39,835 bases of DNA from a virus (Duplodnaviria; Caudoviricetes), in the IMG/VR virus record IMGVR_UViG_3300033551_000015, positions 1 to 39,835 of that record. One strand, written 5' to 3'. Shown here piece after piece: positions 321 through 33,854 of this stretch. The position numbers and the translations under genes are program-made. The first letter of the stretch is position 1, and every line of letters starts with the position of its first letter. A model generated the notes under the pieces. The model worked only from the letters and a program-made list of their open reading frames with translations, had not been told where the DNA came from and searched no databases.

Positions 321-399
321 TGTTCCGCGCTGGAGTCGAACCAGCCTCTTCACCTGCCGACCAAGGCTAGTGACGACCTCCCTCGAGGTCCTGCAGAAC
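321..399 (-). ncRNA. tRNA-like element 1 (non-canonical cloverleaf)
   Basis: Minus strand: GTTCTGC/GCGGAAC 7-bp acceptor, GACCTC/GAGGTC hairpin, irregular TCAC/GTGA arm, T-arm GCTGG-TTCGACT-CCAGC, then A-CGA. Confidence 0.6.
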
Positions 400-425
400 A
401 GAGCCCGGAACCACCGGGCGAACGA

Positions 426-875
426 CTAGCTGCGAGCCGCCGTGTTGTACGAGCAGAATCCGGACCAGGAGTTCACCTGATAGCCGTCCTTCGGGATCGA
501 GTCGTCGTCCATCTTCAGGACGAAGTCGCCCGAGAGCGCCACCGAGCGGAGCAGACGCGAGCCGTCGCGGTACGCATACGTGATCGTCATCACGATCTCG
601 GGAAGCGGATCGCCGTTCAGCTCGGCCGCCTGAATCTTGTCCCACAACTCGGACCAGAGGTGATCTCGCTTCTCCGACTTGAAGCTGACGTCCCAGCCGA
701 CGACATCGAGGTCGCCGCGAGCGCGCTTCTCGCCGGTGAATCGCTTCTTCGCGATCGCGGCGTCGGGCTTGACGCTGAGATCGTGAATAGTTGAGAACGA
801 GCCTCCGAGTCGAGTCCCGTCCACCGTGAGCTGAACCCGCGCCTCCTTGGCGCGAATCTCTCCTGAACCTGCCAT
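426..875 (-). CDS. putative tail tube protein
   Basis: 149 aa, beta-rich pattern, directly downstream of the sheath gene; AGGAG RBS. Confidence 0.6.
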   Translation of the reverse strand: MAGSGEIRAKEARVQLTVDGTRLGGSFSTIHDLSVKPDAAIAKKRFTGEKRARGDLDVVGWDVSFKSEKRDHLWSELWDKIQAAELNGDPLPEIVMTITYAYRDGSRLLRSVALSGDFVLKMDDDSIPKDGYQVNSWSGFCSYNTAARS

Positions 876-907
876 TGGATTTTCTCCTTGTTCCTAGATG
901 GACGAAC

Positions 908-2476
908 TCACTGCTCGGAGACGACGGCATCAGTGCCGATGGTCGCCTGGAGGAGGATCTGGATGTTCTTCGGGATGAGCCGAGCGATCAGCAGCTCACG
1001 CTGAAGACCGACAGCGTTCTCTGCGAGGTTGTTCACCGAGGCGCCGTTCGCATAATCGAAGAGCGGACGACCCGAGCGCTCGTCCTTCATGATGTAGCGC
1101 TCGTTGTTCGCGAGGCCCTCGAGGAAGCTCGAGACTGCCGAGGCGCGAGCCGCGCGGTTCCCCGCGGTGTTCCCCTTGAACTGATCACCCTGGAGCCTAC
1201 GCGCGACCGCGTCGAGGATGAAGTCCTTCATGTAGCGACCATCCAGGTCCTTGTTGTTGACCGTGAAGTCGCACGTGAGCGCGTTGCCGGGGATGACGAC
1301 CTCGTTGCCCTGAGCGTCGACGTCGCGAAGCATGAACGAGACGCCACCGCGATCCAGCGCGTCGCGCACCGGGTTGGACAGCTCGAGGTAGACGCCGCGA
1401 GCAGCGCGAGTCAGCGGCGCGTTGTCGATGTCGCCCGGGTGAACGTCGGGGTCGGTCTGCGAGATGATCGACATCGGGTAGAGGAATGGCTCCTCCAGGA
1501 TCTCCTCGCGCGTGACCGGATCGGTCAGCTTCACGTGGTTGAACCAGTACGACATGCGATCGGTGTTGAACCCGGCGCGCTCCGTGACGGCCGCCGTGTA
1601 CGTGACGGTCTCGTCGTCCGGACAAGCGAACCAGACTCGCTGAGTCGTCGCGCCAGCGAGCTCCTCGATCTTCGTCTTGATCGCGACGTTCGAGAGACCG
1701 ACGACGGCGCAGGCGTGGATGCCAGCCATCGCGTCGATGGCTTCCATCGGGCCGGCCGCTCCGGTGTAGTCACCGTCGGCGATCGCGCCGTCGGTGCCGG
1801 CGACGCTCGTGTAGCTGGCAACAACCTGACCGAGCTTGACGTAGCCGTCGGCGTCAGCACCGTCGGTAGACGCCGCGTTGTTCACCGGACGACCGTCGGC
1901 GAGCTTGGCGAGACGGATGAGCGTCGCATGATCGTTGCCGATGACGACGTTCGTGTTGTCGAAGCCGGTCTCGATCTTGATGTTCTCATAGATCGTCACC
2001 TTGCCGTAGAGGCGAACGAGAAGGTTGAACGCGTCCGCGTCACCGTTCGTCGCGGCGACGACCTTGATCCCGACGTCGTTGCCCCACGTCCCGGGGCTCG
2101 CAGCGTCGACCCGCAGAACGGCGACACCAGCTCCGCCGGCGGCGTCCTCGAGCGTGAAGCTCGCCTTGACGGCAGCGGCAGCGGCAGCGCGCGCGACGTA
2201 GAAGCGACCCCAATACTTCCCCTGGAGTGCCTTCCACACGTGACCGAGAATCGCGCCGCCGTTCGTCGCCTTGTCGCGACCACCGAAGACGTCGAGGAAC
2301 CGCTGGTACGTGTCGCACAGAACCGGAACGCCGACGGGTCCGCGGACGCACTGTCCCACGAACCCGACGACGCGGTTCCGCTGACCGCGAATGGGAACCG
2401 CTGGAGCACGCTCCAGCACGTAGACGCCAGGAGCGCCCATCTGGTTCTCAGTGAGGATGTAACGAGGTGCAGGCAT
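908..2476 (-). CDS. contractile tail sheath protein
   Basis: N-terminal PGVYVLE...GFVGQCVRGPV...F...FG and SPGTWGND motifs typical of sheath proteins; 522 aa. Confidence 0.85.
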   Translation of the reverse strand: MPAPRYILTENQMGAPGVYVLERAPAVPIRGQRNRVVGFVGQCVRGPVGVPVLCDTYQRFLDVFGGRDKATNGGAILGHVWKALQGKYWGRFYVARAAAAAAVKASFTLEDAAGGAGVAVLRVDAASPGTWGNDVGIKVVAATNGDADAFNLLVRLYGKVTIYENIKIETGFDNTNVVIGNDHATLIRLAKLADGRPVNNAASTDGADADGYVKLGQVVASYTSVAGTDGAIADGDYTGAAGPMEAIDAMAGIHACAVVGLSNVAIKTKIEELAGATTQRVWFACPDDETVTYTAAVTERAGFNTDRMSYWFNHVKLTDPVTREEILEEPFLYPMSIISQTDPDVHPGDIDNAPLTRAARGVYLELSNPVRDALDRGGVSFMLRDVDAQGNEVVIPGNALTCDFTVNNKDLDGRYMKDFILDAVARRLQGDQFKGNTAGNRAARASAVSSFLEGLANNERYIMKDERSGRPLFDYANGASVNNLAENAVGLQRELLIARLIPKNIQILLQATIGTDAVVSEQ

Positions 2477-2506
2477 GAGACGCTCCTGAAGAAGTTGAAG
2501 AGACGG

Positions 2507-3472
2507 TTACACAGAACGAAGCAGAACTGGACCGTTCTGTCCGTTCTGTCCAGGCTGAGCGCCGAACCCTCCACCGAGTCCGCCGAGTCCGCCGATGTTA
2601 TCGATCACGTACTGACGAAGCGCGCCGACCTTGTCGACGATGACGACGAGTCCGCCGGCTCCACCTCCGCCACCTCCGCCACCGACGCCAGAGCCGGCGA
2701 ATCCGTCGCCGCCGTTCGCACCGCGAGCGAGAATCGTCCCTCCACCCTGGATGTCCGGAGCGAAGATGCAGACGCCGTACGACTGCTGACCGCCTCCTCC
2801 TCCGCCGGCTCCGTTCGCTCCGCCTCCGCCTCCGGCTCCACCTCCGCTGAGCGGAACACCGTTGTTTCCACCCTGAGGGCGAAGCAGGTAGAGCGGCATC
2901 AGCGTGATGCCGTTGAGACCGGAGCCGCCGTTGACGGTGGTCATCGTCCCGCCAAGACCGCCAACCTGACCACCACTCGCCGCACCACCGTTAGCGCCGT
3001 TCGGCACCGGAAGCTCGCTGAGTGCTCCAGTGCTTCCGCCACCGACAGCGCCGACTCCGTTGAATCCGCCGTTGCCGGGATTGAACGAGTTCGCGTAGAT
3101 GCGAATGCCGGTGAACGCTCCTGCCAGACCGCCGGCGACCGCCGTTCCGGGAGCGCCCGGTTGCGGCGCGCGCGACGTGATGATCGACGTCGGTCCGTCG
3201 GTGGTGATAGGCGTCTGGCACATGATCGGGTAGCCGTCGAGGTCGAGAGTGCCTCCAGCGGCGACGTGGATCGAGGTGTGAGCCGAGATGCGAGGATTGA
3301 CGTACGTCTGTCCAGCGCCGACGACGAGAGGTCCGTCCGTGCCTGGACCGAACGCGAACGAGTACAGAAGCGCGGCCGAGTCGACGAGGTCTCGCAGACG
3401 CGCGGGCGTGATGAGCCCCTCGCCGTTGTCTGCGAACAGCTCGTCAAGCTGTGCTTTCGTTCGCATCGTCAT
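2507..3472 (-). CDS. glycine-rich virion protein
   Basis: 321 aa with many GGxGG runs (GGGAGGGGGANGAGGGGGG); lies in the structural operon. Confidence 0.6.
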   Translation of the reverse strand: MTMRTKAQLDELFADNGEGLITPARLRDLVDSAALLYSFAFGPGTDGPLVVGAGQTYVNPRISAHTSIHVAAGGTLDLDGYPIMCQTPITTDGPTSIITSRAPQPGAPGTAVAGGLAGAFTGIRIYANSFNPGNGGFNGVGAVGGGSTGALSELPVPNGANGGAASGGQVGGLGGTMTTVNGGSGLNGITLMPLYLLRPQGGNNGVPLSGGGAGGGGGANGAGGGGGGQQSYGVCIFAPDIQGGGTILARGANGGDGFAGSGVGGGGGGGGAGGLVVIVDKVGALRQYVIDNIGGLGGLGGGFGAQPGQNGQNGPVLLRSV

Positions 3473-3475
3473 TGG

Positions 3476-4246
3476 TTAGCTCCCGAACCCTGATGAGAAG
3501 CCGTCGCTCCAGGAGTCGGCGACCTTCTTCGGCGGATATCCCGTGTAGTACTCGTTGTCGGCTCCGCCGTCGAGGTCGGTGATCTTGACGTCGTCCGGAT
3601 CGCTGTCGTCAATCGGTTGATCGACGTGAACGTCGAACCCGAAGATGAACTTCTTGATCAACGCCTGACGCGGATCGTCGCGCGGGACCAGAAGCGACAA
3701 CTCCAGCTCGAACGAGAGCCAGGCCCAGAGTCGCTCGGCAAATGCGTACTCGGCGGTCCAGGTGGAGTCGCCGACGATCGCCGTTGCGGTCCACGGACAC
3801 GGAAGCGTGTAGTCGCCGACGACCGGCTCGGGGATGTCGAAGAGCCATCGACCTGGGGCCTCTGGCTCGTCGAAGAACATTCGGAAGATTCTCGCCTCGA
3901 GTTCCTCGCGCTTGGCCGCGTGACGAGCGCCGACCCAGATGCGACCCCGACACCTCATGGTGCCGACGAGTGAGAGCCATGCTCCGCAGCCGAGGTCCAA
4001 GTTCGGCTTCCAGTCGAGCGTCGCGGTAGCACCGATGAGCGGCTGATTGTTCTCGTCAGCCTGGACCTCGTCGTCGTCGGTCACCTCGATGTTCGTCGTG
4101 TCGATCATGATCGACACTGATGGAGCGTCTGGAGCTGCGCTCGGTGGCGCGGCGATAGCCGTCGGTCGCTGTGCAAGACGCAACCGCTCATGCAGTGCGT
4201 CGCACATACGATTGACGGCTTGTCGCCTGAACGCCAGCGAGATCAC
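3476..4246 (-). CDS. hypothetical neck/tail-terminator region protein
   Basis: Overlaps upstream gene stop; position between neck genes and sheath. Confidence 0.45.
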   Translation of the reverse strand: MISLAFRRQAVNRMCDALHERLRLAQRPTAIAAPPSAAPDAPSVSIMIDTTNIEVTDDDEVQADENNQPLIGATATLDWKPNLDLGCGAWLSLVGTMRCRGRIWVGARHAAKREELEARIFRMFFDEPEAPGRWLFDIPEPVVGDYTLPCPWTATAIVGDSTWTAEYAFAERLWAWLSFELELSLLVPRDDPRQALIKKFIFGFDVHVDQPIDDSDPDDVKITDLDGGADNEYYTGYPPKKVADSWSDGFSSGFGS

Positions 4247-4716
4247 GGCTTACTCTTCTCCTCCCTCAAGATTCTCTGCAGCTCCTCCCTGAAGAACTTC
4301 TTCGCCATCGGGAGTGCTTTCCTCATCACGTGTCTACCTTCTTGACCGTGCTGCTCGATCGTCTTGGCGATCGCCCACGACGCCGACTCGGCGTTCGCCT
4401 CGTCGAGTCCCAGCTTGATCATGCACCATCGCTTGATCGCCTCGCGTCCCTCCTTGGAGACCTTGTGAGGGCGAGCACCCTCCTCGACGATGCCAGCGTG
4501 GGGAGCGTCGTTGACGACGCCTCTGTCGGTCGCGCGGAACCCGTTCTTGTAGGTTCCCTGATACGTGATGCCGAGCTTGTCGGATTGATTCGCGAGATAC
4601 GTCTTCAGTCTCAGCGACGCCGCTCGAGCGGCCTTCGGTATCGCGCCTTTGATCGCCTCGCCCTTGCGTCGCAGCGCTTTTGGCAGATCAGCTGCGCTGA
4701 TCTTGATCGCGTTCAC
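4243..4716 (-). CDS. HK97 gp10-like tail completion/neck protein
   Basis: VVNDAPHAGIVEEGARPH resembles the N..YA..VE.G motif; synteny. Confidence 0.55.
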   Translation of the reverse strand: MNAIKISAADLPKALRRKGEAIKGAIPKAARAASLRLKTYLANQSDKLGITYQGTYKNGFRATDRGVVNDAPHAGIVEEGARPHKVSKEGREAIKRWCMIKLGLDEANAESASWAIAKTIEQHGQEGRHVMRKALPMAKKFFREELQRILREEKSKP

Positions 4717-5216
4717 GGTGCGTCCGTCGCGTCCAGCGGACCCATGTCCGACGTCTCGTTGAGCACGATGTACCAGTCGGTCGCGTCGCCCGGTGTGTCA
4801 CCGCGTCGGGCGACCGGGCCGGCTGAGATCACGAAGTAGCGGGTCTTCTGCCGTTGTCCGTGCGCCTCGGTGAGGCGATACGCGACCTCGGTTCGGTGGT
4901 CCGCCTTCGGCGCGAGTTCGGCCTCGGTGTACCGAAGCGAGACGCCAGTCAGCGTGAGGGTGCCGGATGCCTCGCGCCCTGCCGGACCGAGGCGATCCCT
5001 CGTGTTCCGGCGGACGTGAGGTGTCGGGTCCAACTCGAGGACGCTCTCCTCGCATCTCCCGACCCCGGTGCTCTCTCCCGACCATCGTCTGGTGACGATG
5101 GCGACCTTCCACGGGCGAGTGCCGAGCTTGCCGTGGATCTTCCGCCGAACCGTGTCCACCACGTCGATGAGCTTATCGGCGTGCTTGGAGCGATCGACGG
5201 TAGAGTCCTTAGCCAT
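4713..5216 (-). CDS. putative head closure/head-tail joining protein
   Basis: 167 aa; synteny only. Confidence 0.4.
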   Translation of the reverse strand: MAKDSTVDRSKHADKLIDVVDTVRRKIHGKLGTRPWKVAIVTRRWSGESTGVGRCEESVLELDPTPHVRRNTRDRLGPAGREASGTLTLTGVSLRYTEAELAPKADHRTEVAYRLTEAHGQRQKTRYFVISAGPVARRGDTPGDATDWYIVLNETSDMGPLDATDAP

Positions 5217-5233
5217 CTCGGCTCAGCTCTCGG

Positions 5234-5995
5234 TCAGCGGTAGCCGGGGATCTGGATGCCGACGAGCGTCGCGGTCCACGCACCGCCGGCGCTGAGCGCC
5301 GAGAGACGAGCGCGGATGAGCTTCGCGTGCATCGGGCGACCGCCGGTGCCGCTGAGCGAGACGGGGAACGAGACGTTCGCCGCCGCGACGAAGTCGGTGT
5401 CGGCCACCGTCGCGAGCTCGTCCCAGTTGACGCCATCGATGGAGCGCTCGACGATGATCGCGCACGTGCCGACACCGGGATCGACGATCTGGTTCAGCAG
5501 GAGAGCGATGTTCGTGAGCCCCTCCGCGCTGAACGTGATCGCGTCGTTGACGGCCTCCATGAGCCCGTCCGAGTCAGCGTCGGTGGTGAGCGTCCCGGCG
5601 TCGATGATGAGGCGCTCGCTCGGATCGCGCTGGACGCCGTAGCCGAGAACCGTGTACGAGCCGCCGCCGGCGACGGCGGTGAGCTTGACGCGGATCTGCT
5701 TCGCGAGCAGAGGCATGCCGTTCACGTCGACGAGAAGCAGCGACTGAGCCTTGTTCGCGCCAGCGGGGAACGAGGCCTCGGTGAACTGACCGACCGGATC
5801 CCAGTTCACGCCGTCGAGCGTGCGCTCGATGTCGATCGTACACGTGCCGGCGTCGACGATCTGGTTGACGAACACCTCGATGTTCGTGCAGTGACGGACG
5901 TCCATAACGGCGACATCGTTCGTCGTGTCGAGCTGCTCGGTGGTGCCGGCGTCGACAGTGTACGCGACGAGAATGGGAACGATCTTCTTCAGCAT
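5234..5995 (-). CDS. structural protein with two tandem homologous beta domains
   Basis: NQIVD...C.I..ER..DGVNWD...F.A.AN...P..AK.IR..L.A occurs twice; AGGAG RBS. Confidence 0.65.
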   Translation of the reverse strand: MLKKIVPILVAYTVDAGTTEQLDTTNDVAVMDVRHCTNIEVFVNQIVDAGTCTIDIERTLDGVNWDPVGQFTEASFPAGANKAQSLLLVDVNGMPLLAKQIRVKLTAVAGGGSYTVLGYGVQRDPSERLIIDAGTLTTDADSDGLMEAVNDAITFSAEGLTNIALLLNQIVDPGVGTCAIIVERSIDGVNWDELATVADTDFVAAANVSFPVSLSGTGGRPMHAKLIRARLSALSAGGAWTATLVGIQIPGYR

Positions 5996-6087
5996 GTCGG
6001 TCTCCTAAAAGGTGGCGCCCTCCTCGGGCATTGGACGTAACGGTGGAATTAACCGCCCTCCGCGTCGAGGAGGACGCCGAAACTAGA

Positions 6088-6486
6088 CTACCGGCCGAAC
6101 CGGCTCTCGGCGGGATCGCCCGAGTAGAAGCTCCCGTTGTCACGAACATTGGAGCTCGAGCTGAAGACGTCTCCGTCGATGGAGATCTTCAGGAACCTGG
6201 CGAGCTGGTTGACGTAGCTGCGACCGAGGCGCCAGAGGTGATCCAGCGTGTAGTGAGCGCGAACCTTCACGCTCCCGTCCTCGATCGCCGCGGCGAGCGG
6301 CATGGTCTCGTGAACTTCGCGAACGATGTCCTCGAGCTTGCAGAGCAGGTCGCGAACGATCGGCCCAGCGACAGGCTCGACCGAGTCGATGGAGTTGAGC
6401 GAACGCATGGCTGGACCGTTGTCCTCGAACACCGAGTATCCGAGGAAGAAGAGGATCTTACCCTTCTCTGCGTCCGTGAATGCCAT
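6088..6486 (-). CDS. putative head-tail adaptor
   Basis: 132 aa, MAFTDAEKGKILFFLGY start; synteny downstream of capsid. Confidence 0.45.
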   Translation of the reverse strand: MAFTDAEKGKILFFLGYSVFEDNGPAMRSLNSIDSVEPVAGPIVRDLLCKLEDIVREVHETMPLAAAIEDGSVKVRAHYTLDHLWRLGRSYVNQLARFLKISIDGDVFSSSSNVRDNGSFYSGDPAESRFGR

Positions 6487-6494
6487 GGCGTCGA

Positions 6495-9308: not shown

Positions 9309-10910
9309 TCACTGATCACTGGTGTCGTGCAGCTTGTTCGCCTTGTCGTGAATGATCGTTACGTGAACGACGCGCTTCTTGTTCGAAACACCGTCGATGG
9401 CTGCGTCATGCTCCACCTTGTCGACACGGTATCGCGTCGATCGCGGAAGCAGAACCTCTCGCTCGTGCGAGTGAAGCGAAGGGACCGGCGCGGCCGGATA
9501 GCCCTTCGGTATCGAAACGAACATGATCGTGTCCTTGTGAGAGAACGACGAGCCAAGAGACATCGACGAGGAGCTGAATCCGTGATCAGTGAACTCGTCA
9601 CCTGGCTTGATCTTGTCGAGACCCGACTTCGCGCCATTGAGGCCGCGGAACGTCATCATGTCGGTCGGGGCCGGAGACTTCTTCAGAGCGCCGTCGATGT
9701 TCCTGACATTCGGCGACTTCGTCGCACCGAGCCCCTTGTTCGCTCTGAGGGACGCGTTCATGCTCTTGAAGCCGGATCCAGTGTAGGACAGAACGGCCGA
9801 CTTCTGTTCATCCGTCAACTTCGACGCGAACTCTTCGCGAGCCTCCTTGAAGCTCTTGCCGAACACCTTCTTGCTGTGTGACTCCCCCTTCGGCGTCGGG
9901 TTTGAGATCGTAGCGCCGTACGTGATGTTCTTCGCCTCGGAGAGGATCTTCTCCTTCCACTTCGCGGTGTCTGCGTCGATCGCCTTCATGTTCGGCTTCG
10001 GCAAACCGAATTCCGCGCCAACAGACTTCATCTTCGTCTGCTCCGCACTCTGCTTCGCCTGCTTCGTCAGCTCGTGATCGGCACCCGCGGCTTTCTCCAC
10101 CTTCTTCGCAGCGAGATGCGCCTTCTTGCTGGCGATTGCCGCCTCCAGCTCGTGCGCCTTCTTCTCAGCCGGATCTGTCGCCGACTCCGCCTTCTTGACA
10201 GCTTCCGCGTGCTTCTTCTCCCAGAACTTCGCGCGAGCCGCGTATCGCTTCGCGGTCTTCTCGGCGGTCGGTTCGAGCTTCTTGACTTGAGCAGACTTGG
10301 GGATGGTCGTCTTCCACGCGTCCTGATCGGCCTTCTTCTGCTCGGCGATCTTCATCTCGCTCTTGATCTCAGTCTTCAGCTTCTCCTTGTCGATCGACTT
10401 AGACTTGTCGCTCCACGACTTCGGGTCCGGCGTCTTCGGTGCTTGACCAAAGGTCTTCATCGACCGATTGGAGATCTGCTCGAGATGCACCTGTGACGCC
10501 TTCGCCATCGGGTGATCAGTGCCGACAGCCTTGACCACCTTCATGTGCGCCTGGACGGCCTTCTTGTTCGCGGCATACGCGGCCGCGAGGTGAGTCTGTC
10601 GCTCGACCTCTGTCGACGCGTTCTTCGCCTTAGCGTGATGCTCCGCGGACTTCTTGTTCCAGAACTTGGTCCGCGCCGCGTATCGCTTCGCCGTCTTCTC
10701 GGACTTCGCGTCAGCGCCGATCGAGCCCGATCCTCCGCCCGGTGTTGCTGAAGACGCGTGAGCTGTCTTCGGCGCAGAGGTTCCACCCGCGGACTTGACG
10801 ATCTGCGACTTCTCCTTAACCGGAGCTGCACCGATGCGTCCACCACCGGGCGCGAACTGACCGCCGAGACGCTTCTCGATGATCTTCGCAGCCTTTGAAG
10901 CTCTACCCAT
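9309..10910 (-). CDS. Lys/Ala-rich protein with C-terminal VIP2-like ADP-ribosyltransferase domain
   Basis: YTGSGFKSMNASLR, TFRG, FTDHGFSSSS, EREVLLPR give the R-S-ExE signature. Confidence 0.85.
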   Translation of the reverse strand: MGRASKAAKIIEKRLGGQFAPGGGRIGAAPVKEKSQIVKSAGGTSAPKTAHASSATPGGGSGSIGADAKSEKTAKRYAARTKFWNKKSAEHHAKAKNASTEVERQTHLAAAYAANKKAVQAHMKVVKAVGTDHPMAKASQVHLEQISNRSMKTFGQAPKTPDPKSWSDKSKSIDKEKLKTEIKSEMKIAEQKKADQDAWKTTIPKSAQVKKLEPTAEKTAKRYAARAKFWEKKHAEAVKKAESATDPAEKKAHELEAAIASKKAHLAAKKVEKAAGADHELTKQAKQSAEQTKMKSVGAEFGLPKPNMKAIDADTAKWKEKILSEAKNITYGATISNPTPKGESHSKKVFGKSFKEAREEFASKLTDEQKSAVLSYTGSGFKSMNASLRANKGLGATKSPNVRNIDGALKKSPAPTDMMTFRGLNGAKSGLDKIKPGDEFTDHGFSSSSMSLGSSFSHKDTIMFVSIPKGYPAAPVPSLHSHEREVLLPRSTRYRVDKVEHDAAIDGVSNKKRVVHVTIIHDKANKLHDTSDQ

Positions 10911-13059: not shown

Positions 13060-14814
13060 TCACGGGCTAAAGCCGCCGCCCGAGCCCCATCCGGTGCTCA
13101 TCGCGAGAAGCGCTGCGACGCTTGACTTCTTCTTCTTCTTCTTCCTCTTCGGCACAGTGTGATCCTTGCTCTTCGACTGGCCGATGAGTTTGGAGCCGCT
13201 CTCCTGGAGCTTCGGGGACTGCTTCGGCTTCTTCGACTTCTTCTCCTTGAAGCTCGGCGCGGACCCGCGCTTGACAAACGCGTCCCAGTGCTCCTGACTG
13301 TGGATCTTGAGACCGCCCTCCTTCGTGTACGACGCGACCTTCGTCGGCGGCCGACCGAACGGCTGACTGTTGTCGTGCAGCGTGAACTCGTCGAAGACGC
13401 CGCGCTTGATGCCCTCTTGAACCGTGCGGCTGACGTCGCGGTGAGCGTCGCGAATGTACTGCTCCGGAACAACGCGACCGTAGGAGTCGCTCTTCGGGTC
13501 GGCGGCGCGAGCGTTCGAGCGCTTGACCGCTTCCTCCACGTCGACGGTCGCGTAGCTGGCGACGACACGCTTCGCTCCGTTCTCCCTCCAGGTGTTAATC
13601 CGCTTCTCGAGGTTGTCGATGCCGTTGTCGCCAACGGTGTCGAACACGACGTCGTGTCCACCGTTGAGCGCCTTGTGAGCGGTCTCCTTCGCCATATGTG
13701 AGGACTCCTCGTGAGCGAACGCAGCGGCTCGGTCGTCCTTCGCCTTCTTGCCAGCCTCGTACTCGGGGATGTGCTCCTTGGCTCCGTCCGCGTTCACGTG
13801 AGCAGCCTTGCTCGCGCCAGGGATGGCTAGCTCCGGGTTCCTGAGCAGAGCCGACGACTTGCCGGACGCAGGGCCTCCGCCGGTCATGTAGACGGTCGGC
13901 GCCTCGTGCTTCGGGAGGTCCTTCGTGATGACGCTCTCCTCGTAGGCTTTGTGGACCCTGTTGACGCGGTCCTTGTCCCATCCGTTCGCGGTCTTGAAAC
14001 GCTCCTCAGTGTCCTTGTGACCTCGCGATTCTCCCTGCCACTCTGGCGCCTTCGCCGCCTTCTTCGCGAACTTCTCGGCGGTCTTCTGGTAGTGAGCTTC
14101 CTTGCCGCCTCGAGCTGTGTGAACCGTGCCGTCGGCTCGAGTCACCGTGGTGAAGGAGCCGTACTGATCTTTCCCGCGTGTGATCTTGTCGCCCGGCTGA
14201 TGCGCGAACTTCTCCGGCTTCGGCTTCTTCTCCTTGGCCGCCTCGAGTTTCGTGCCGAGCATGGGGTCGCCCTTGATGAACTCTGACCTCTTCAACGCAG
14301 CCTTCTTGCTCGCGGCCGTCCCGTGCGTGATCCTCGCCATCGCAGAGTTGTGACCGTCGGCGGCCTTGATCGCCGCCTTCGCGTCGAAGCCGCCTCCGGC
14401 CTTCAGCATGTGACCGTGGGACTGCTTCGCTAGCGGATGGCTCTCGCCAACCGCCTTCACGACCTTGGCGTGAGCGACTCGAGCCTTCTTGGCGGCGAGC
14501 GCCTCGGCGACTCCACGCTCCGCACCGGACAGCTTGCTCGCCTCAGCGTGCTTCTTCTCCCAGAACTTCGCGCGCTGAGTGTAGCGCCTCGCAGTCTTGA
14601 GGCTCTTCTCGTCGGGAGCACCTCCTCCGCCTCCACCACCGGATCCTCCGCCTCCGCCGCTCTTCTTGACGATCGCCTCCTTCGCCTTCGCGATGCGCTC
14701 CTGACGAGCGAGCTTCGCCTTCGACGGTCCCGCCGTGATGCGACCTCCACCCGGTGCGAACTGACCGCCGAGGCGACGCTCGATGATCTTGCCAGCGCGA
14801 CCACGCTTGCCCAT
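13060..14814 (-). CDS. Lys/Ala-rich protein with zeta-toxin-like P-loop kinase domain
   Basis: MTGGGPASGKS, VNAD, HEES, DVVFDT, GRVVP motifs. Confidence 0.8.
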   Translation of the reverse strand: MGKRGRAGKIIERRLGGQFAPGGGRITAGPSKAKLARQERIAKAKEAIVKKSGGGGGSGGGGGGGAPDEKSLKTARRYTQRAKFWEKKHAEASKLSGAERGVAEALAAKKARVAHAKVVKAVGESHPLAKQSHGHMLKAGGGFDAKAAIKAADGHNSAMARITHGTAASKKAALKRSEFIKGDPMLGTKLEAAKEKKPKPEKFAHQPGDKITRGKDQYGSFTTVTRADGTVHTARGGKEAHYQKTAEKFAKKAAKAPEWQGESRGHKDTEERFKTANGWDKDRVNRVHKAYEESVITKDLPKHEAPTVYMTGGGPASGKSSALLRNPELAIPGASKAAHVNADGAKEHIPEYEAGKKAKDDRAAAFAHEESSHMAKETAHKALNGGHDVVFDTVGDNGIDNLEKRINTWRENGAKRVVASYATVDVEEAVKRSNARAADPKSDSYGRVVPEQYIRDAHRDVSRTVQEGIKRGVFDEFTLHDNSQPFGRPPTKVASYTKEGGLKIHSQEHWDAFVKRGSAPSFKEKKSKKPKQSPKLQESGSKLIGQSKSKDHTVPKRKKKKKKSSVAALLAMSTGWGSGGGFSP

Positions 14815-27835: not shown

Positions 27836-28308
27836 GCGAGCGTCGAGTGTTCACCTTCGGCGACTTCGATCTCATCCACGTCGGCGTCGTCAAGCTCCTC
27901 AGGTTCGCCGCGCAGGAGTTCGCCGCGTCGGGGACGGAGGTCGAGCTGACCGTCGCTCTGCGAACCGACGAGGTGATCGACTGTCAGCGGCGCGAGCGAC
28001 TTCACACGTTCGAGGAGCGTCTCGAGATGCTGAGCATGATGCGACACGTGAGCTTCGTGCGACGACTCGAGGACGAGCTGCCGATACAGATGCTGATCGA
28101 CATGTATCGCGTCGCGAATGGACCGCACGTGATCGTCGAGCCGACGACTCGGCTCAAGGGAAGAACAACCGACCTGGAGATCGCCGTCGGGGCGTATGGA
28201 GGCATCGTCATTCCGTACGACACGACGCACGACAAGGCTCACTACTGGAGCCTTCGCGCCTTCAGGGATCGCAGCAAGACGATGAAGAAGCTGAGAAGGA
28301 AGGTATGA
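27832..28308 (+). CDS. TagD-like cytidylyltransferase-fold protein with degenerate HxGH
   Basis: VFTFGDFDLIHVGV, VALRTDE, TFEERLEML...V; second His of HxGH is Val. Confidence 0.7.
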   Translation: MSERRVFTFGDFDLIHVGVVKLLRFAAQEFAASGTEVELTVALRTDEVIDCQRRERLHTFEERLEMLSMMRHVSFVRRLEDELPIQMLIDMYRVANGPHVIVEPTTRLKGRTTDLEIAVGAYGGIVIPYDTTHDKAHYWSLRAFRDRSKTMKKLRRKV

Positions 28309-30329
28309 GCGAAGAACCAAAGACGACCGACTACTGCGCGCGATGCGGCGAGTCACCGGAGAGCGGCTCGCATCTACCGCACGGACACGAGTACGTGGAT
28401 CCGCGCGTTCGTGATCCGGCCATCAAGACGAAGCAGTTCGCACATCAGGCGAAGCTCTACCTCGAGCAGCGGAACGCGAGGTTCTTCGCTCTACACTGGG
28501 AGATGGGTCTCGGCAAGACTAAGCTGACGATCGACGTCGCATCCCACCTCTTCCTCACCGGGCAGATCGACGCCGTTCTGGTCGTGGCTCCGAATGAAGT
28601 TTTCTTAAACTGGCTCCAGGAAGAGATGCCTCGTCACATGGCGGCTCCATACGTCGGCATGGCGGCGAGGACGAAGGGCTCCAAGTCCGAGCGGACCAGG
28701 ATGAAGCAGCTGATGATGCTGAACCGGGACGATCCGGACTTCCGCGGGAAGCTCAGGTTCGTGTGCGTCAGCTACGACGGTCTGCGAGTCGAGGCGACGT
28801 GGGAGTTCGTCAAGAAGTTCGCGATGATCTATCGCACGATGATCATCGCGGACGAGTGCAGCCGCATCAAGAATCGCAACGCTCAGCAGACGAAGCGCGC
28901 GAAGACGCTCGCCGAGTACTGCCCGGTGAGGTGGGAGGTGACGGGAACTCCGGCCACGGAGTCGCCGTTCGGTCTGCACTCGCAGATCGAGTTCCTCGAC
29001 CCGAACTTCTGGGCTCAGTACGGGCTTCGCTCGTACAGCGCGTTCAAGACGCGGTTCGGCGAGTTCGAGCTCAGGCGCATGGGGAAGCGAGTCTTCAACC
29101 AGCTGAAGCAGTATCGTGGTCTCGACGACCTTCGCCGCATGATCGCGCCGATCTCGTCGCGACTGCTGAAGGAGGACTCGGAGGTCGATCTCCCGCCGAA
29201 GCTGTACACGACGCGACGCTTCGACATGGCCGAGGAGCAGGCGAGGCTCTACGCGCAGGTGCGCGATCAGTTTCTCGCGGAGTTGGACGGCGGCATGATC
29301 CTCGAGGCGTCGCTCGCCGTGGTTCGCCTCACGCGACTCCAGCAGATCGCCTGCGGTCACGCGACCGTGGATCAGTACGAGTCGTACGACGAGACCGAGG
29401 ACGAGGAGCTGGAGCGTCAGCTGAGTTTCGACGACTCGCCGAGGTGGGACGAGCAGGTTCAGCGACCGCTCAGCGTAGAGATCATCGAGGACGCTACGCG
29501 ACGCGCTCTGGCGACGCCCGAGGCCGAGGCTGCCGCTCGTGCTCAGTGGGGCGACGGCGACGGCGAGGTGCCGAGGCTCGCCGGCTCGCAACTCGCGGAG
29601 CCTCAGTCGTACGAGGAGGTCTACGCGCGCGTACAGCAGGGGATTCAGGACGTCGCTGCGTCAGGTGAGTCAGGGAAGATGCGGACGGATCCGGTGATCG
29701 CCGAGGCCGCTCCACTGAAGTCGACGCGCAAGACCATCGACGTGATCCCGCCGAAGGACAACCCGCGTCTCAAGCTCCTGGTCCATCTGGTCGAGCAGGC
29801 GACGCAGAACTACGAGGTCGCGAGACCGAGGAAGGTGATCGTCTTCTGCCGCTTTCGTCGAGACGTCGACCTGATCGTCGAGCACCTCAACGCGCTCGGT
29901 TGCGAGGAGGATGACGACGAGGAGTTCGGGAAGAAGTTCGCCGATCGCCGAGGAGAGTTCGCGTTGAGGTACGACGGTGCCGTCAAGCACGGCGTTCGCC
30001 CGGGTGTCCTCAAGCGGTTCCGCGATTCAGCCGACCCCTCCCGCGTCCTCGTGGCGAACGTTCACGCGATGTCGATGGGCGTCACGCTGACCATCGCCAA
30101 GACGATGATCTTCTACAGCAACTCGTTCAGCCTCGAGAAGCGCCTTCAGGCGGAGGACCGCTTCCATCGCATCGGGCAGGACCAGTCGGTCCAACTGATC
30201 GACATCGTCGGCAACGGAACCGTGGACGAGCACGTGGTGAAGTCGATGCGCGAGAAGTTCGAGATTCAAACACAGGTCACCGGCGATCGCCTTCGCGAGT
30301 GGCTCAACATCAGGGGTGTGGAGTCGTGA
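28305..30329 (+). CDS. SNF2-family helicase
   Basis: EMGLGKT, DECSRIKN, TGTP, GVTLT, QAEDRFHRIGQ. Confidence 0.9.
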   Translation: MSEEPKTTDYCARCGESPESGSHLPHGHEYVDPRVRDPAIKTKQFAHQAKLYLEQRNARFFALHWEMGLGKTKLTIDVASHLFLTGQIDAVLVVAPNEVFLNWLQEEMPRHMAAPYVGMAARTKGSKSERTRMKQLMMLNRDDPDFRGKLRFVCVSYDGLRVEATWEFVKKFAMIYRTMIIADECSRIKNRNAQQTKRAKTLAEYCPVRWEVTGTPATESPFGLHSQIEFLDPNFWAQYGLRSYSAFKTRFGEFELRRMGKRVFNQLKQYRGLDDLRRMIAPISSRLLKEDSEVDLPPKLYTTRRFDMAEEQARLYAQVRDQFLAELDGGMILEASLAVVRLTRLQQIACGHATVDQYESYDETEDEELERQLSFDDSPRWDEQVQRPLSVEIIEDATRRALATPEAEAAARAQWGDGDGEVPRLAGSQLAEPQSYEEVYARVQQGIQDVAASGESGKMRTDPVIAEAAPLKSTRKTIDVIPPKDNPRLKLLVHLVEQATQNYEVARPRKVIVFCRFRRDVDLIVEHLNALGCEEDDDEEFGKKFADRRGEFALRYDGAVKHGVRPGVLKRFRDSADPSRVLVANVHAMSMGVTLTIAKTMIFYSNSFSLEKRLQAEDRFHRIGQDQSVQLIDIVGNGTVDEHVVKSMREKFEIQTQVTGDRLREWLNIRGVES

Positions 30330-30667
30330 TCCTTCGGTGCAACATGTCTCAGGAAGACTTCAACGAGGCGATCTCAATCGCGACTGAGCGCGAGCTTCTC
30401 GACACCATCTTCGAGCAGCCGTTTCTGCTCGAGTCAGCACACTTCGTCGAATGCCGAAGGGTGATCGGCAGACGTCACGCCGAGTTGCTCGCGGCTCGCG
30501 GTAACGAGAAGTCGCTAGCCGAGGTCGTCGACGCCGCGATCCTGTCCGTCATGACCACGCACGATCACTCGGCGCTGTGGAGCCACGGGCGACTGGATCC
30601 GGAGGCGTTCCGCTCGGCGATGCGACGCGTGCTCGAGAACCAGCATCGACACCTGGAGAAGAAGTGA
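30326..30667 (+). CDS. hypothetical protein
   Basis: GTGA overlap with helicase stop. Confidence 0.5.
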   Translation: MILRCNMSQEDFNEAISIATERELLDTIFEQPFLLESAHFVECRRVIGRRHAELLAARGNEKSLAEVVDAAILSVMTTHDHSALWSHGRLDPEAFRSAMRRVLENQHRHLEKK

Positions 30668-30909
30668 TGGATCGGCTTCAGCAGAGCATCCTCGACGCCG
30701 AGCGCGCCGCGAAGGTCGCCGAGAAGCGAGCCGCTCACCTCGAGGCGAGGGAGGACGGATGGCGGAAGCACCTCCTGCAGATCGGCTCGAGCGATCCGCC
30801 GCCGGAGCCTCCTGCGCTGTTCACCTGCGACGACTGTCCGGCAGCGCTGGAGTGTCCGTCCGCATTCGACGACTATAACACGAACGGCGACTGTCTGGAG
30901 ATGAAGTGA
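30667..30909 (+). CDS. small coiled-coil and Cys-rich protein
   Basis: TGATG overlap; CDDC...C...C. Confidence 0.5.
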   Translation: MDRLQQSILDAERAAKVAEKRAAHLEAREDGWRKHLLQIGSSDPPPEPPALFTCDDCPAALECPSAFDDYNTNGDCLEMK

Positions 30910-31322
30910 TGCCGAGAGTCTACGTCATTCAAAACACGCACCGTCTCAATCGAGACACTCACACGCTCGAGCCGAAGTACGACTTCGACGAGGCGAAGCA
31001 GTTCGGTGACGTCGTATTCCTGTTGTCGCCGATGGCGAAGCCGCACGACCCGACGGTGATCAAGGAGTTGCGGGAGAAGCTTCGCGACATCACGACTCAC
31101 GACTACCTCCTGCTCGTCGGCAATCCGTCGCTCATCGGTTTCGCGTGCGCCGTCGCAGCGGACGCTACCGACGGGCGGTTGAAGGTTCTCCAGTGGGACG
31201 GCAAGAACAAAGCGTACGTCTGCGTGAGCGCGAATCTTCGAGCGACCTTCAAGACGCGATGCAGAGTACACACGTTTGTCAACGACGTGTGTCGCGACTG
31301 CGGCATCTGCGAGGACGCGTAA
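30906..31322 (+). CDS. hypothetical alpha/beta phage protein
   Basis: VYVIQ...DYLLLVGNP...VLQWD; C-terminal CRDC. Confidence 0.6.
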   Translation: MMPRVYVIQNTHRLNRDTHTLEPKYDFDEAKQFGDVVFLLSPMAKPHDPTVIKELREKLRDITTHDYLLLVGNPSLIGFACAVAADATDGRLKVLQWDGKNKAYVCVSANLRATFKTRCRVHTFVNDVCRDCGICEDA

Positions 31323-31369
31323 AAGGCGTCTGCGACCAAACAGGCAAGAAAGAAAATTGCGCTCACCTA

Positions 31370-31398
31370 TTGCGTAACGTGCCGTAACCTGCTATAGT
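31370..31398 (+). promoter_or_regulatory. sigma70-type promoter
   Basis: TTGCGT-17 bp-TATAGT with extended -10 TG and A-rich upstream tract. Confidence 0.7.
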
Positions 31399-31496
31399 CG
31401 CCCGAACCACGGTTGGCCTCCAACTTCGGCAGCTCTGCGACGAATGTGCGTCGGCGAGCGCCTCAGCGGGTCATCCCAGAAATGGAGTACTGAACA

Positions 31497-32279
31497 GTGA
31501 GTGTGGACAGAAAACCAGATCCGCGCAACAACGCGGACGACGCGTACGACGCATTCGTGAAGATGGGCGACAGCGAGTGGCAGGGACTGCTCCGCTCGCT
31601 CGCCGGCGGAGGCGTGCTGACCGAGGCTGAGACCGAGGGCTTCAAGCGCGCTCGCACAGAGCGCGCTCAGCTGTCGCGCACCGAGACGGTCGACGCGGCT
31701 CCGGTCATCCCGAACTACGCCGGCGAGGAGCTGCCGACTCCGCAGGACGCCATCCGGGCGCTCGGTCAGCTCGCCGCGAAGCAGGGTCTGCTCGAGCTGG
31801 AGATCGAGGATCTCGAGCAGCAGCTCAAGGACAAGAAGAAGGAGCTGGCGGAGTACGCCGAGAAGCTCGTGCCGACCGCGCTCGAGCAGATGGGGATCGG
31901 CGCCGGCTCCAAGATCAAGACCCTCGGTGGTCTCACCGTCGAGCTGAAGGAGGACGTTCGCGCGTCCATCCCGCAGGACCCGACGAAGCGTCAGGCCGCG
32001 CTGGACTGGCTCTACGAGACCGGCAACGACGGCATCGTCAAGCGCGAGATCACCATCAGCTATCCGCGCGAGAAGGCGAAGTTCGCCGACGAGCTGATGG
32101 ACAAGCTGCGCGATATGGGCGTCATGGAGAACGCCTCGGTCGAGAACGACTGGGACATTCACAACTCGACGCTCGTCGCGTTCATCAAGGCTGAGCTTCG
32201 CGAGGGGCGCGAGGTGCCGATGAGCAACTTCGGCGCCTTCATCCAGAAGCGGGCGAAGATCAACAGGAGCGGTAAGTGA
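31497..32279 (+). CDS. phage coiled-coil protein of the replication module
   Basis: 260 aa, GGAG RBS, ALDWL...GIVK and IH..TL..F motifs; function unknown. Confidence 0.6.
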   Translation: MSVDRKPDPRNNADDAYDAFVKMGDSEWQGLLRSLAGGGVLTEAETEGFKRARTERAQLSRTETVDAAPVIPNYAGEELPTPQDAIRALGQLAAKQGLLELEIEDLEQQLKDKKKELAEYAEKLVPTALEQMGIGAGSKIKTLGGLTVELKEDVRASIPQDPTKRQAALDWLYETGNDGIVKREITISYPREKAKFADELMDKLRDMGVMENASVENDWDIHNSTLVAFIKAELREGREVPMSNFGAFIQKRAKINRSGK

Positions 32280-32563
32280 GCGCGCCGAAGACGAAGCCGT
32301 CGCTGACGGTTCTGCCCGGTGGGTTGAGCGCGCCGAAGCTCAGCGCGAAGTTCAAGGCGACGCTGCCGAAGCGAAGCCTCGCCAGGGAGGCTGTCTGGGA
32401 CAGCGAGTTCGCTCGGCTCCAGCGACGCCTCGAGAAGATCGCGGCGCTGAAGCGCGGCGACGCGACCATCAAGAAGGTGAGCGTCGGTGGTGGATGGGTG
32501 AGGCGACACTATCGCGACCCTCACACACGATATCTGATCCGACTCCGCTCCGACAAGAAGTAA
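32276..32563 (+). CDS. small basic protein
   Basis: 95 aa, Lys/Arg-rich; GTGA overlap. Confidence 0.55.
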   Translation: MSAPKTKPSLTVLPGGLSAPKLSAKFKATLPKRSLAREAVWDSEFARLQRRLEKIAALKRGDATIKKVSVGGGWVRRHYRDPHTRYLIRLRSDKK

Positions 32564-32570
32564 GCAGACA

Positions 32571-32623
32571 GCTCCCGCCGTCGAAGAGGGACGGGTTCGT
32601 CGGTTCGACTCCGACGGTGAGCG
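32571..32623 (+). ncRNA. tRNA-like element 2 (no D-arm)
   Basis: GCTCCCG/GGTGAGC acceptor (5 of 7 pairs), CCGTC-7nt-GACGG arm, T-arm GTCGG-TTCGACT-CCGAC, then G-CGA. Confidence 0.5.
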
Positions 32624-32739
32624 CGATGCTCCGGCTATCCAGCCGAGCAGGAACAACCGGGCGCGACAAGCTGGTCAGCGCTGCCGAATGGTCGGCGTGC
32701 GTTCGTCAGCCAGCATCCGGGACAAGCGAAGGTAGGAAC

Positions 32740-33552
32740 ATGACTAAGGAAACGACCGCGATCCAGAACCCCGACAAGAACACCGGCATCCAGATCTTCG
32801 ACTACGGCGAGGACGCCGGTAAGGGATACGAGAACCAGTCCAAGGCGGACCTCTCGATGCCCTTCATCAACCTCCTCCAGTCGGGTTCCCCGCTGGTGAA
32901 GGACGGCAAGGCTCGAGCGGGTGACTTCTTCAACACGGTGACTCAGCAGATCTGGCCGCGCGAGACTGGTCTGCTCTTCGTTCCCGGCAGCACGAAGCAG
33001 ATGTTCGCGGAGTGGGTTCCGCGGAAGCAGGGCGGAGGATTCCGCGGTCATCATCAGGTGAACGACGAGATCGTGCTGAACGCGATCAAGAACGCGGCGA
33101 AGTTCGGGAAGTATCTCACTCCCGAGGGCAACAACCTGAACGACACGTTCTACGTCTACGGTGCGCTCTGCACGGAGGACGGAGTCGCAGACTCCATGTG
33201 CGTGATCCCGTTCTGGTCGACGAAGATCCGGCCGTACAAGGCGTGGAACTCTCGTCTCCGCACGTTCAACATGCAGCACGGGAACAAGATCCCGCTCTTC
33301 GCGAACCTCGTGCGCATGACGTCGAGGGAGACGCAGAACAGCGAGGGCGAGTTCTACATCCCGGTGCTCTCGAGCGCCGATCCGCGTGGCATCGGCTACA
33401 GCTTGCTCGGTCCGGACGACGAGCGGTTCCAGATGGCGAAGGCTTGCGCTCAGCTGGTGATGAGCGGCGACGCCGACATCAACTACGGCAAGTCTCGCGA
33501 GGCCGAGGGCGACGACGAGGACGGCGAGAAGAAGGACGGCAATCCCTTCTGA
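32740..33552 (+). CDS. putative single-stranded DNA-binding protein
   Basis: Start MTKETT; acidic C-terminal tail ending NPF like SSB tips; replication context. Confidence 0.55.
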   Translation: MTKETTAIQNPDKNTGIQIFDYGEDAGKGYENQSKADLSMPFINLLQSGSPLVKDGKARAGDFFNTVTQQIWPRETGLLFVPGSTKQMFAEWVPRKQGGGFRGHHQVNDEIVLNAIKNAAKFGKYLTPEGNNLNDTFYVYGALCTEDGVADSMCVIPFWSTKIRPYKAWNSRLRTFNMQHGNKIPLFANLVRMTSRETQNSEGEFYIPVLSSADPRGIGYSLLGPDDERFQMAKACAQLVMSGDADINYGKSREAEGDDEDGEKKDGNPF

Positions 33553-33603
33553 CCAGTCGGTGAGTGCGTTCCGACTCGCGCACCTCAAACGAGTCGGTGG
33601 TCA

Positions 33604-33663
33604 GCCTCACGTATGGGAACTCACGGTAGACGCCGTGACGGGGTTCGAGTACCCGGTGAGGCG
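33604..33663 (+). ncRNA. tRNA-like element 3 (D-arm replaced by loop)
   Basis: GCCTCAC/GTGAGGC perfect acceptor, TCACGG/CCGTGA arm, T-arm CGGGG-TTCGAGT-ACCCG (one mismatch), then G-CGA. Confidence 0.55.
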
Positions 33664-33665
33664 CG

Positions 33666-33854
33666 ATGAGCTACAAGTGGAGCATCGAGGTTCCAACGCG
33701 CGTCTTCAACGCGTACAGGACGGTAGCTGCGGTCTACTTTCGTCTGGCGGACAGGCCCGGGTGTCTGTTCTTCATCGGCGATGATGAGATCGTGGCACGT
33801 TGTGACGGCGGAGACAGCGGAGACGAGGATCAGCCGTGTTCATCGAGCGACTGA
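33666..33854 (+). CDS. small hypothetical protein
   Basis: 62 aa; GAGG RBS lies in the 3' stem of tRNA-like element 3. Confidence 0.4.
   Translation: MSYKWSIEVPTRVFNAYRTVAAVYFRLADRPGCLFFIGDDEIVARCDGGDSGDEDQPCSSSD

Follow-up and report, generated by a model that had tools for sequence, protein, structure and literature searches.

The window analysed here is the whole 39,835-nt stretch of DNA from a soil phage (IMG/VR record IMGVR_UViG_3300033551_000015), and it contains three intergenic tRNA-like elements, E1, E2, and E3. All three lie on the coding strand, in the orientation of their flanking genes and 7–51 nt after the preceding stop codon. The elements and their neighbors are:

3..272, minus strand: conserved 89-aa gene after E1, with 29 homologues (63–99%)
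321..399, minus strand: E1 (read from 399 to 321), tRNA-like cloverleaf; trailer CGA at 320–318
403..419, minus strand: 6-bp GC hairpin ending 3 nt ahead of E1
426..875, minus strand: 149-aa gene upstream of E1, likely the tail tube from its place after the tail sheath
32571..32623, plus strand: E2, short tRNA-like element with a 5-bp T-arm and a single 5-bp hairpin with a GG loop
32740..33552, plus strand: SSB-like gene (Pam3 gp34-like, Pfam PF23977), acidic tail ending PF
33564..33597, plus strand: predicted H-type pseudoknot with 5-bp and 8-bp stems, ending 6 nt ahead of E3
33604..33663, plus strand: E3, mascRNA-sized, vestigial D-loop GG; trailer CG, then ATG
33666..33854, plus strand: 62-aa gene after E3
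34638..35900, plus strand: Dda-like helicase, conserved partner 3′ of the SSB-like gene

On re-checking, the coordinates and strands given by the original prediction were correct, as were the three N-CGA ends. The uniform fold that it attributed to the elements held only in part. E1 had a full acceptor (7/7, or 8 bp if U-1 pairs with the discriminator), a complete T-stem (5/5) with the TTCRANY loop, and a 6-bp D-like stem with a 4-nt GG loop. The acceptor of E3 was also complete (7/7), but its T-stem paired at 4/5 positions, with a G.A replacing the T-loop-closing G-C pair (G53-C61, normally invariant), and E2 combined a 5/7 acceptor with a 5/5 T-stem. The canonical anticodon arm, a 7-nt loop on a 5-bp stem, was absent from all three: the middle arm of E1 was interrupted with a 6-nt loop, E2 had none, and E3 carried a 6-bp hairpin with a 4–6-nt loop. 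This supported the view that they are non-decoding mimics of the tRNA top half.

E1 folded as a cloverleaf (z −3.0). The z-score of E2 was −0.56, and its tRNA-like model reached −19.5 kcal/mol vs. −25.0 kcal/mol for the lowest-energy fold; the lowest-energy fold of E3 was likewise not tRNA-like (−29.5 vs. −27.2 kcal/mol). ARAGORN had been expected to report a pseudogene or nothing, an expectation that failed for E1, which was called tRNA-Ala(agc). In the Rfam scans, the tRNA model RF00005 listed none of E1–E3, and it scored the elements of the relatives L420, L421, and L423 at 58–66 bits. The best Rfam match of E1 was tRNA-Sec (20.9 bits, cut-off 47), with the anticodon and variable arms unpaired. 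In the window scan, E3 best matched the whole mascRNA-menRNA model RF01684 (35.4 bits, cut-off 42.5, E 1e-3), which gave no match to E1 or E2.

The elements are real and exceed chance. With a fold detector that was loosened after E3 had been seen, four matches were observed in the window, one of them false and inside an SNF2 gene, vs. a mean of 0.35 and a maximum of two across 150 Markov copies of the same stretch; for strong matches, two were observed against a Markov mean of 0.04. When the window, about half of the genome, was searched for C4/CI-type antisense targets, the longest uncalibrated match elsewhere in it was 11–12 nt.

The gene ahead of E3 likely encodes an OB-fold single-stranded DNA-binding protein, as predicted from a structural model (pLDDT 91) with two middling matches, the phiC31 RDF (Z 7.8) and T4 gp32 (Z 5.4). 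A single-protein scan gave no match for it, an alignment scan gave matches, and the SsbA/RPA rows were weak. This SSB-like gene has 149 homologues. The pseudoknot between this gene and E3 tied for the strongest among 11 found in the window. It shared 30/35 bases with its counterpart in the relative G002 (L419 among the loci), including one compensatory change from C-G to U-A, though the SSB-like proteins are only 51% identical; a viral-contig search with the pseudoknot sequence returned G002 only. Stop-codon readthrough driven by the pseudoknot was rejected because its distance from the stop codon differs (11 nt here vs. ~75 nt in G002). An attP remnant was also rejected, because the 5′ strand of the acceptor is there as well and the ORFs scanned gave no integrase. 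The 62-aa gene after E3 is likely real: its coding frame was preferred (GC3 0.73), and it has three small homologues (53–60%). The final A of the CGA of E3 is the A of the ATG of this gene, and a Shine-Dalgarno-like run lies within the 3′ acceptor strand of E3. The original prediction included neither the upstream pseudoknot, nor the start codon overlapping the trailer of E3, nor the link to tRNA-Arg described below.

Conservation in relatives was found for position and fold at the site of E3, and there were no orthologues of E1 (0/16 tube-gene loci) or E2 (0/58 upstream regions). Contigs from four soil DNA runs revealed strain differences in neighboring genes; among the pieces listed, those covering E2 and part of E3 were free of differences. 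Among 56 non-redundant loci, nine top-half matches fell in the 16.8 kb just 3′ of the SSB-like gene vs. one in 595 kb elsewhere, a count that includes kin and is therefore not independent. In a quick tree the window fell within a six-member clade (SH-aLRT 99), all six members of which carry an element at the site: tRNA-Arg(UCU) in L420 and L421, and anticodon-less forms in L417, L418, L419, and the window, which group together with a support of 83. tRNA-Arg(UCU) also occupies the site in L423. Across the 10 site elements, 116/120 stem cells were paired, with at least three pair types at 10/12 positions (partly circular, as the elements were chosen for pairing); the D-loop GG was present in 10/10 and the middle varied from 16 to 67 nt. 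The elements are anticodon-less tRNA-like folds, likely derived from tRNA. Carriage by an HNH gene was rejected: L446 and L447 both have similar HNH-like genes at the site, and only L447 has an element.

A pseudoknot preceded the element in the window, L419, L420, and L421, and a hairpin or terminator did so in the other six; at a looser setting, pseudoknots 3′ of the SSB-like gene were also found in six loci without an element. As a trend only, a terminator occupied the gap in 27/47 loci without an element vs. 2/9 with one and 0/6 in the clade of the window. An ATG lay 2–4 nt past the discriminator in 5/9 relatives vs. 11/116 blind-sample T-arms (P 0.002). In L419 and L466, where the helicase directly adjoins the element, this ATG is the true helicase start.

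One explanation is that the elements are neutral remnants of tRNA genes, now decaying and without a function. The broken acceptor of E2 and the mismatched T-stem of E3 would suit it, as would the lack of any element in most relatives and the abundance of aberrant tRNA-like pieces in viral contigs (23 vs. 44 ARAGORN tRNAs, among 116 T-arms). However, decay should erode all arms equally, whereas here pairing in the acceptor and T-stem persists with many base-pair types, and deletions or expansions affect the middle. The pseudoknot has outlasted the divergence of the SSB-like proteins, and another aberrant form common to G003 and G004 shows compensatory changes. We regard neutral decay as an improbable account of the elements.

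The original prediction defined the family by its CGA end. Trailers at the site of E3 in nine relatives read CCA (three), CCG (two), and CGA, CCT, CGC, and TTA (one each); eight of nine begin with C, and the sole CGA belongs to a canonical tRNA-Arg. The tRNA-Arg of L421 ends exactly in N-CG-ATG. In a trailer-blind sample, CGA followed 0/44 ARAGORN tRNAs and 1/23 aberrant elements, and C came first in 20/25 CCA-less tRNA genes. Other tRNA-like elements of G003, G004, and G006 had CGA in 0/4 cases. CGA ties for the commonest triplet in the genome (4.2%); the original prediction had already cautioned that it is common. The chance of three CGA ends was 7e-5 naively, 0.0024 with the first C given, and 0.008 for any common triplet, so that they remain mildly unlikely (0.002–0.008) if E2 and E3 are independent. 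Because 13/14 final bases of E2 and E3 are identical, trailer included, there are probably two independent cases rather than three, for which the chance calculated by hand is ~0.08 for any common triplet. E2 is likely a decaying duplicate of E3, and the ATG at 32626 after it starts an extension of 38 codons that seems non-coding. CGA as a family signature is not conserved; it reflects a CG-rich genome, an apparent duplication of E2 and E3, and a start codon. A family marked by N-CGA for a dedicated enzyme, or for escape from CCA-directed ones, would account for the identical ends of E1–E3 and for CGA being the top non-CCA trailer among neighboring tRNAs (14/95, biased because the loci were picked for CGA), but in view of the counts above it is very improbable. 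Conservation lies in position and fold.

Since relatives carry tRNA-Arg or cut-down forms at the site of E3, the elements likely mark points where host tRNA enzymes cut the phage message. Our preferred explanation, with a probability of about 0.55, is that E1–E3 act in cis as marks for RNase P (and RNase Z). Such use as mRNA punctuation was already raised by the original prediction, and it ranks best on position, fold, the upstream pseudoknot or hairpin, the downstream start codon, and the tRNA-Arg at the site of E3. RNase P would measure the 12-bp acceptor plus T-stem and cut at the 5′ end of the element. The pseudoknot (E3) or hairpin (E1) would then form the end of the upstream mRNA and block 3′ exonucleases, in place of the terminator that many relatives have, and the SSB-like and tube-like messages would remain abundant. 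The tRNA-like body would lie at the start of the downstream message and hide the ribosome-binding site of that message in its acceptor stem; alternatively, trimming at the discriminator could leave a nearly leaderless mRNA. The next gene would in either case be expressed at a lower level, and the trailer would need little beyond its first C. RNase P is described as using a 12-bp ruler and cutting phage M3 and C4 RNAs as well as mRNAs (PMC11143913), and in B. subtilis precursors that lack CCA are processed by RNase P and RNase Z (PMC1874595). Bacterial RNase P also pairs with C74 and C75 and is less efficient without CCA, according to both sources. Counting against cut marks, CGA retains only C74, E3 lacks the G53-C61 pair, the lowest-energy folds of E2 and E3 are not tRNA-like, the ATG of E2 looks unused as a start, an element is absent from the site of E3 in 47/56 relatives, and a first C after the discriminator hinders B. 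subtilis RNase Z.

E3 carries the main argument, and E1 would fit by analogy. The hairpin ahead of E1 likely caps the 3′ end of the upstream message, and a hairpin is also found 3′ of the same tube-like gene in G003. A family search with this gene gave no match, and its assignment as the likely tail tube follows from position. The 89-aa gene, which starts 48 nt past E1, is not found at this place in the tube relatives and was thus likely acquired here.

A different role for the same fold would be a translation gate without cleavage, in which it hides the ribosome-binding site of the next gene, a reader of tRNA shape or the phage SSB opens or locks it, and helicase synthesis is tied to the SSB level. 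The 3′ acceptor strand does hold the one Shine-Dalgarno-like run available to the gene that follows E3 (−7.6 kcal/mol, similar to other window genes), the sole run has the same location in L419, L420, and L447, and the start codon adjoins the 3′ end of the element in the five relatives noted above. We also take the pseudoknot geometry to resemble that of the T4 gene 32 operator, which would favor such a gate. However, this pseudoknot lies 3′ of the SSB-like gene, not 5′; the run is weak or absent in L466 (−2.5) and L421 (−3.9); the start after E1 is distant; and the T-loop, D-loop GG, and 12-bp ruler would be superfluous for hiding a binding site. Such a gate is unlikely.

The original prediction also proposed decoys, for which no positive evidence emerged. 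Released as small RNAs, the elements could act in trans against anti-tRNA defence nucleases or CCA-end modifiers, a role compatible with cut marks: two cuts would release 53–79-nt RNAs able to gain CCA, like YrlA of M. smegmatis (PMC4201824). Hosts attack tRNA and phages respond with tRNAs (PMC7824862), and irregular tRNAs of soil metagenomes lie near toxin-antitoxin genes (PMC5389517). However, the lost part is the anticodon arm, which anticodon nucleases read, no promoter-like site was found upstream of E1, E2, or E3, and decoys would need neither a fixed gene pair nor an abutting start codon. We think this role rather improbable.

Plant mitochondrial t-elements are tRNA-like, carry a T-arm motif, lie at mRNA boundaries, and were proposed to guide RNase P and RNase Z, with canonical tRNAs serving other genes (Forner et al., 2007, PMC1920247). 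Like them, E1–E3 carry the T-arm motif within a tRNA-like fold and lie between genes. They differ from t-elements in belonging to a bacterial virus, in the upstream pseudoknot, in a start codon 2–4 nt past the discriminator, and in having ends predicted from the sequence.

In vertebrate lncRNAs, the MALAT1/MEN-beta 3′ module combines a U-A-U triple helix with mascRNA/menRNA. E3 is of equal size, has shrunken D and anticodon arms, and is preceded by a compact tertiary fold, but it scores below the family cut-off, lies in a polycistronic phage mRNA, and follows, instead of a triple helix, an H-type pseudoknot that is GC-rich and contains no runs of U or A; the likeness is likely due to convergence on a minimal tRNA top half. 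We tentatively suggest a phage counterpart of this end module evolving from a tRNA-Arg gene, in which host RNase P would cap the SSB message at pseudoknot plus top half and a 3′ cut or the acceptor fold would control nearly leaderless translation of the helicase-side gene, which starts next to the former CCA position.

Phage and bacterial tRNA genes that do without an encoded CCA, such as the T4 Pro-Ser precursor (PMC11143913) and genes of B. subtilis (PMC1874595), likewise have trailers beginning with C, but E1–E3 lack their anticodon loop and are unlisted by the Rfam tRNA model. YrlA Y RNAs are non-decoding tRNA mimics of bacteria and phages, one of which is an RNase P substrate and acquires CCA (PMC4201824). 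YrlA has a permuted tRNA domain and a Ro60 gene as its neighbor, whereas E1–E3 keep the normal tRNA order, and no TROVE family was found among 64 ORFs scanned in this genome fragment. Allo-tRNAs and other irregular soil-metagenome tRNAs (Mukai et al., PMC5389517) recall the odd cloverleaf of E1, whose D-stem, short loop, and possible eighth acceptor pair produce its weak tRNA-Sec match; E1 differs in its 5-bp T-stem (not 8/4 or 9/3) and in lacking an anticodon loop or long variable arm. Listings of the open-access literature gave no account of elements like these in phage operons.

The findings carry a warning for annotation: ARAGORN reports E1 as tRNA-Ala, and among well-paired T-arm matches in viral contigs roughly one in three (23/67) is not a tRNA. 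If the phage counterpart of the MALAT1/mascRNA module is real, the ratio of SSB to helicase would be tied to host tRNA processing. If the cut marks are true, phages punctuate their own messages with host tRNA-maturation enzymes, as is known for mitochondria and vertebrate lncRNAs, and certain phage tRNA genes would be kept for cut position, not decoding. With terminator, tRNA-Arg, and anticodon-less forms all represented at one site, a 110-nt cassette could be used to test the old question of what phages have tRNAs for.

The window is a complete virus record of 39.8 kb (~63% GC) whose sequence is contained in soil DNA runs. It covers part of the genome of a contractile-tailed phage and has the same gene order as Pseudomonas phages M6 and PaMx11.

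321-399, minus strand: tRNA-like element E1, past the tube-like gene (426-875, minus strand)
32571-32623, plus strand: tRNA-like element E2
32740-33552, plus strand: SSB-like gene
33564-33597: predicted H-type pseudoknot (5 + 8 bp) ending 6 nt before E3, absent from the original prediction
33604-33663, plus strand: tRNA-like element E3
Minus strand of the window: sheath, head, portal and terminase genes
Plus strand of the window: replication block with SNF2 helicase, Pam3 gp32/33/34-like genes, HNH, Dda-like helicase and hmdU kinase

Two genes next to a MuF gene in the head region, one with an ADP-ribosyltransferase domain and the other with a zeta-toxin-like kinase domain (9309-10910 and 13060-14814, minus strand), probably encode effectors that the virion delivers against the bacterial host. 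From 36609-37763 onwards, an hmdU DNA kinase helical domain gene is joined by kinase-like and methyltransferase genes in what is likely a DNA hypermodification cluster, common to the window and G002, G004 and G005. The SSB-like protein is a predicted OB-fold SSB with an acidic PF tail, at middling Z-scores. The soil runs also contained strain variants, with a 10-nt insertion just past the SSB-like stop (33555) and, at 33162-34126, diverged alleles of both the SSB-like gene and the 116-aa gene.

The three elements are real, and their positions and shared N-CGA ends were borne out by the sequence. They were the sole T-arm folds in a relaxed pattern scan of 13 intergenic gaps. A detector run on the entire window gave 4 hits, one of them a false hit within the SNF2 gene, far above the mean of 0.35 in 150 Markov copies of the window; strong matches numbered 2 against a mean of 0.04, and the bare hexamer GTTCGA was not enriched in the window (42 vs. 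47 expected). The anticodon arm is missing from all three elements; the original prediction had called the anticodon region abnormal or absent. The uniform acceptor and T-arm held for E1, which has a clean cloverleaf, and not for E2, whose acceptor pairs at 5/7 positions, or for E3, whose acceptor is perfectly paired, yet whose T-loop is closed by G.A. For E2 and E3 some other fold has a lower energy than the tRNA-like one. ARAGORN called E1 as tRNA-Ala where a pseudogene or no call had been expected, Rfam gave only sub-threshold matches (mascRNA for E3, tRNA-Sec for E1), and membership tests assigned the elements to none of the tRNA, YrlA, allo-tRNA or mascRNA families. More short inverted repeats lie at 32640-32720, within the 116 nt separating E2 from the SSB-like start.

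The site of E3 was followed in relatives through 73 loci fetched with an alignment of the SSB-like gene and four GenBank phages (77 in total, 56 after removal of duplicates and short ends). A tRNA top half lay within 300 nt past the SSB-like stop in 9/56 loci, against one match in the other 595 kb; three were canonical tRNA-Arg(UCU) and six matched no Rfam family. Across the ten E3-site elements, acceptor and T-stem pairing was kept in 116/120 cells with many pair types, the D-loop GG was present in 10/10, and the middle region ranged from 16 to 67 nt. In a quick tree the window fell within a six-member clade (support 99) with an element at the site in 6/6; L420 and L421 carried tRNA-Arg, and the aberrant forms of the other four grouped together (support 83). 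The element-type label required four changes on the tree, at least two of them forced; the E3-type forms are therefore likely descended from tRNA-Arg, with the order of change unproven.

In 16 loci the tube-like gene is followed immediately by the chaperone-like gene, with no counterpart of E1 between them, and E2 had no counterpart in 58 upstream regions; the 89-aa gene accompanying E1 has 29 homologues elsewhere. E2 and E3 are likely duplicates, judged by sequence comparison, since 13/14 of their last bases are identical and the E2 acceptor is that of E3 minus one pair, plus one mismatch. About 50-75 nt past the SSB-like stop, G002 (L419) had a 7-bp hairpin with both strands the same as the acceptor stem of the L417 element; it looks like what would remain of a second element after loss of the entire interior. 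Other tRNA-like RNAs were noted. G003 (L273:6887-6950, minus) and G004 (L282:8183-8247, plus) share a shrunken form with a 33-nt middle, near-identical in its 3′ half, and compensatory changes in acceptor and T-stem; the former and a second element (L273:8390-8447) lie directly downstream of sigma-70-like promoter sequences, by eye. In G006 (L289, T-loop near 2195), a tRNA-Leu-like element lies 5 nt past a stop codon; its middle measures 77 nt and its end reads A-CGC. Many unrelated viral elements (L004, L021, L022, L027, L031, L032, L050, L091, L099, L114) combine a perfect T-arm with a 6-bp acceptor-like stem, and in some of them the middle is as short as 12-21 nt.

The original prediction defined the family by its CGA end. 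CGA is a joint commonest triplet in the window, and a scan requiring it picked up numerous ordinary tRNAs and tmRNA-like ends. Several viral contigs (L143, L171, L191, L210, L376) carry compact tmRNA-like RNAs of ~70-75 nt with a tRNA-like domain, no reading frame and an A-CGA end. In a blind sample of 120 viral loci (116 unique) selected by T-arm only, from which the counts leave out 49 rows with weak or distant acceptors, CGA ended 0/44 tRNAs and 1/23 aberrant elements, and the first C was kept in 20/25 CCA-less tRNA genes; it was also kept in 82/95 neighbouring tRNAs in CGA-selected loci. The trailers of the nine E3-site relatives were CCA (3), CCG (2), CGA, CCT, CGC and TTA. CGA is not the signal, and a family defined by it is highly improbable. 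Given the first C, the chance of three CGA ends is 0.0024, and of three ends sharing any triplet 0.008. The final A of E3's CGA is the start-codon A of a 62-aa gene, which has homologues and a coding-like choice of codons. A small unexplained CGA excess remains, because the ATG at E2 opens no coding-like sequence and an ATG is lacking at that place in E1. The normal tRNA-Arg of L421 has the same N-CG-ATG end as E3; an ATG 2-4 nt past the discriminator occurred in 5/9 relatives vs. 11/116 blind T-arms (P 0.002), and was the true helicase start in L419 and L466.

Among the 11 pseudoknots of the window, the one before E3 is joint strongest, and it is conserved in G002 (30/35 bases, one compensatory pair, 5 nt before its element). 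In L420 and L421, unrelated pseudoknots precede tRNA-Arg; the remaining six elements have hairpins or terminators before them, and E1 has a hairpin 3 nt upstream. Pseudoknots at the site are not exclusive to elements, because six element-free loci also scored one at a looser setting. A terminator occupied the gap in 27/47 element-free loci vs. 2/9 with an element, and none was found in the window.

RNase P gauges the 12 bp made up by acceptor and T-stem, and its substrates also include phage RNAs and mRNAs (PMC11143913); CCA-less precursors are trimmed at the discriminator in B. subtilis (PMC1874595). The fold, its place, the upstream structure, the downstream start codon and the tRNA-Arg at the same place were all observed, and we give a probability of roughly 0.55 to the elements being cut marks in cis. 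RNase P would cut at the 5′ end of the element, the pseudoknot or hairpin would become the terminus of the upstream message, and the downstream message would open with a fold hiding its ribosome-binding site; alternatively, discriminator trimming would leave it a 2-4-nt leader. A fold that gates translation without cleavage is unlikely. Against cut marks stand the loss of C75 and of the G53-C61 pair in E3, and the lack of orthologues of E1 and E2; neutral decay of former tRNAs is rather improbable, and decoys acting in trans, as originally suggested, are about equally improbable.

As cut marks, the elements would work like plant mitochondrial t-elements (PMC1920247), and are probably not members of that family. 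The literature searched contained no account of such elements in phage operons. The window arrangement shares its layout with the MALAT1/mascRNA module, and the elements do not belong to that family. The outcome for the phage would be abundant SSB and tube messages and lower expression of the next genes. What this locus adds is a series at a single site, running from tRNA-Arg to forms that lack an anticodon, in which a start codon takes the former place of CCA.
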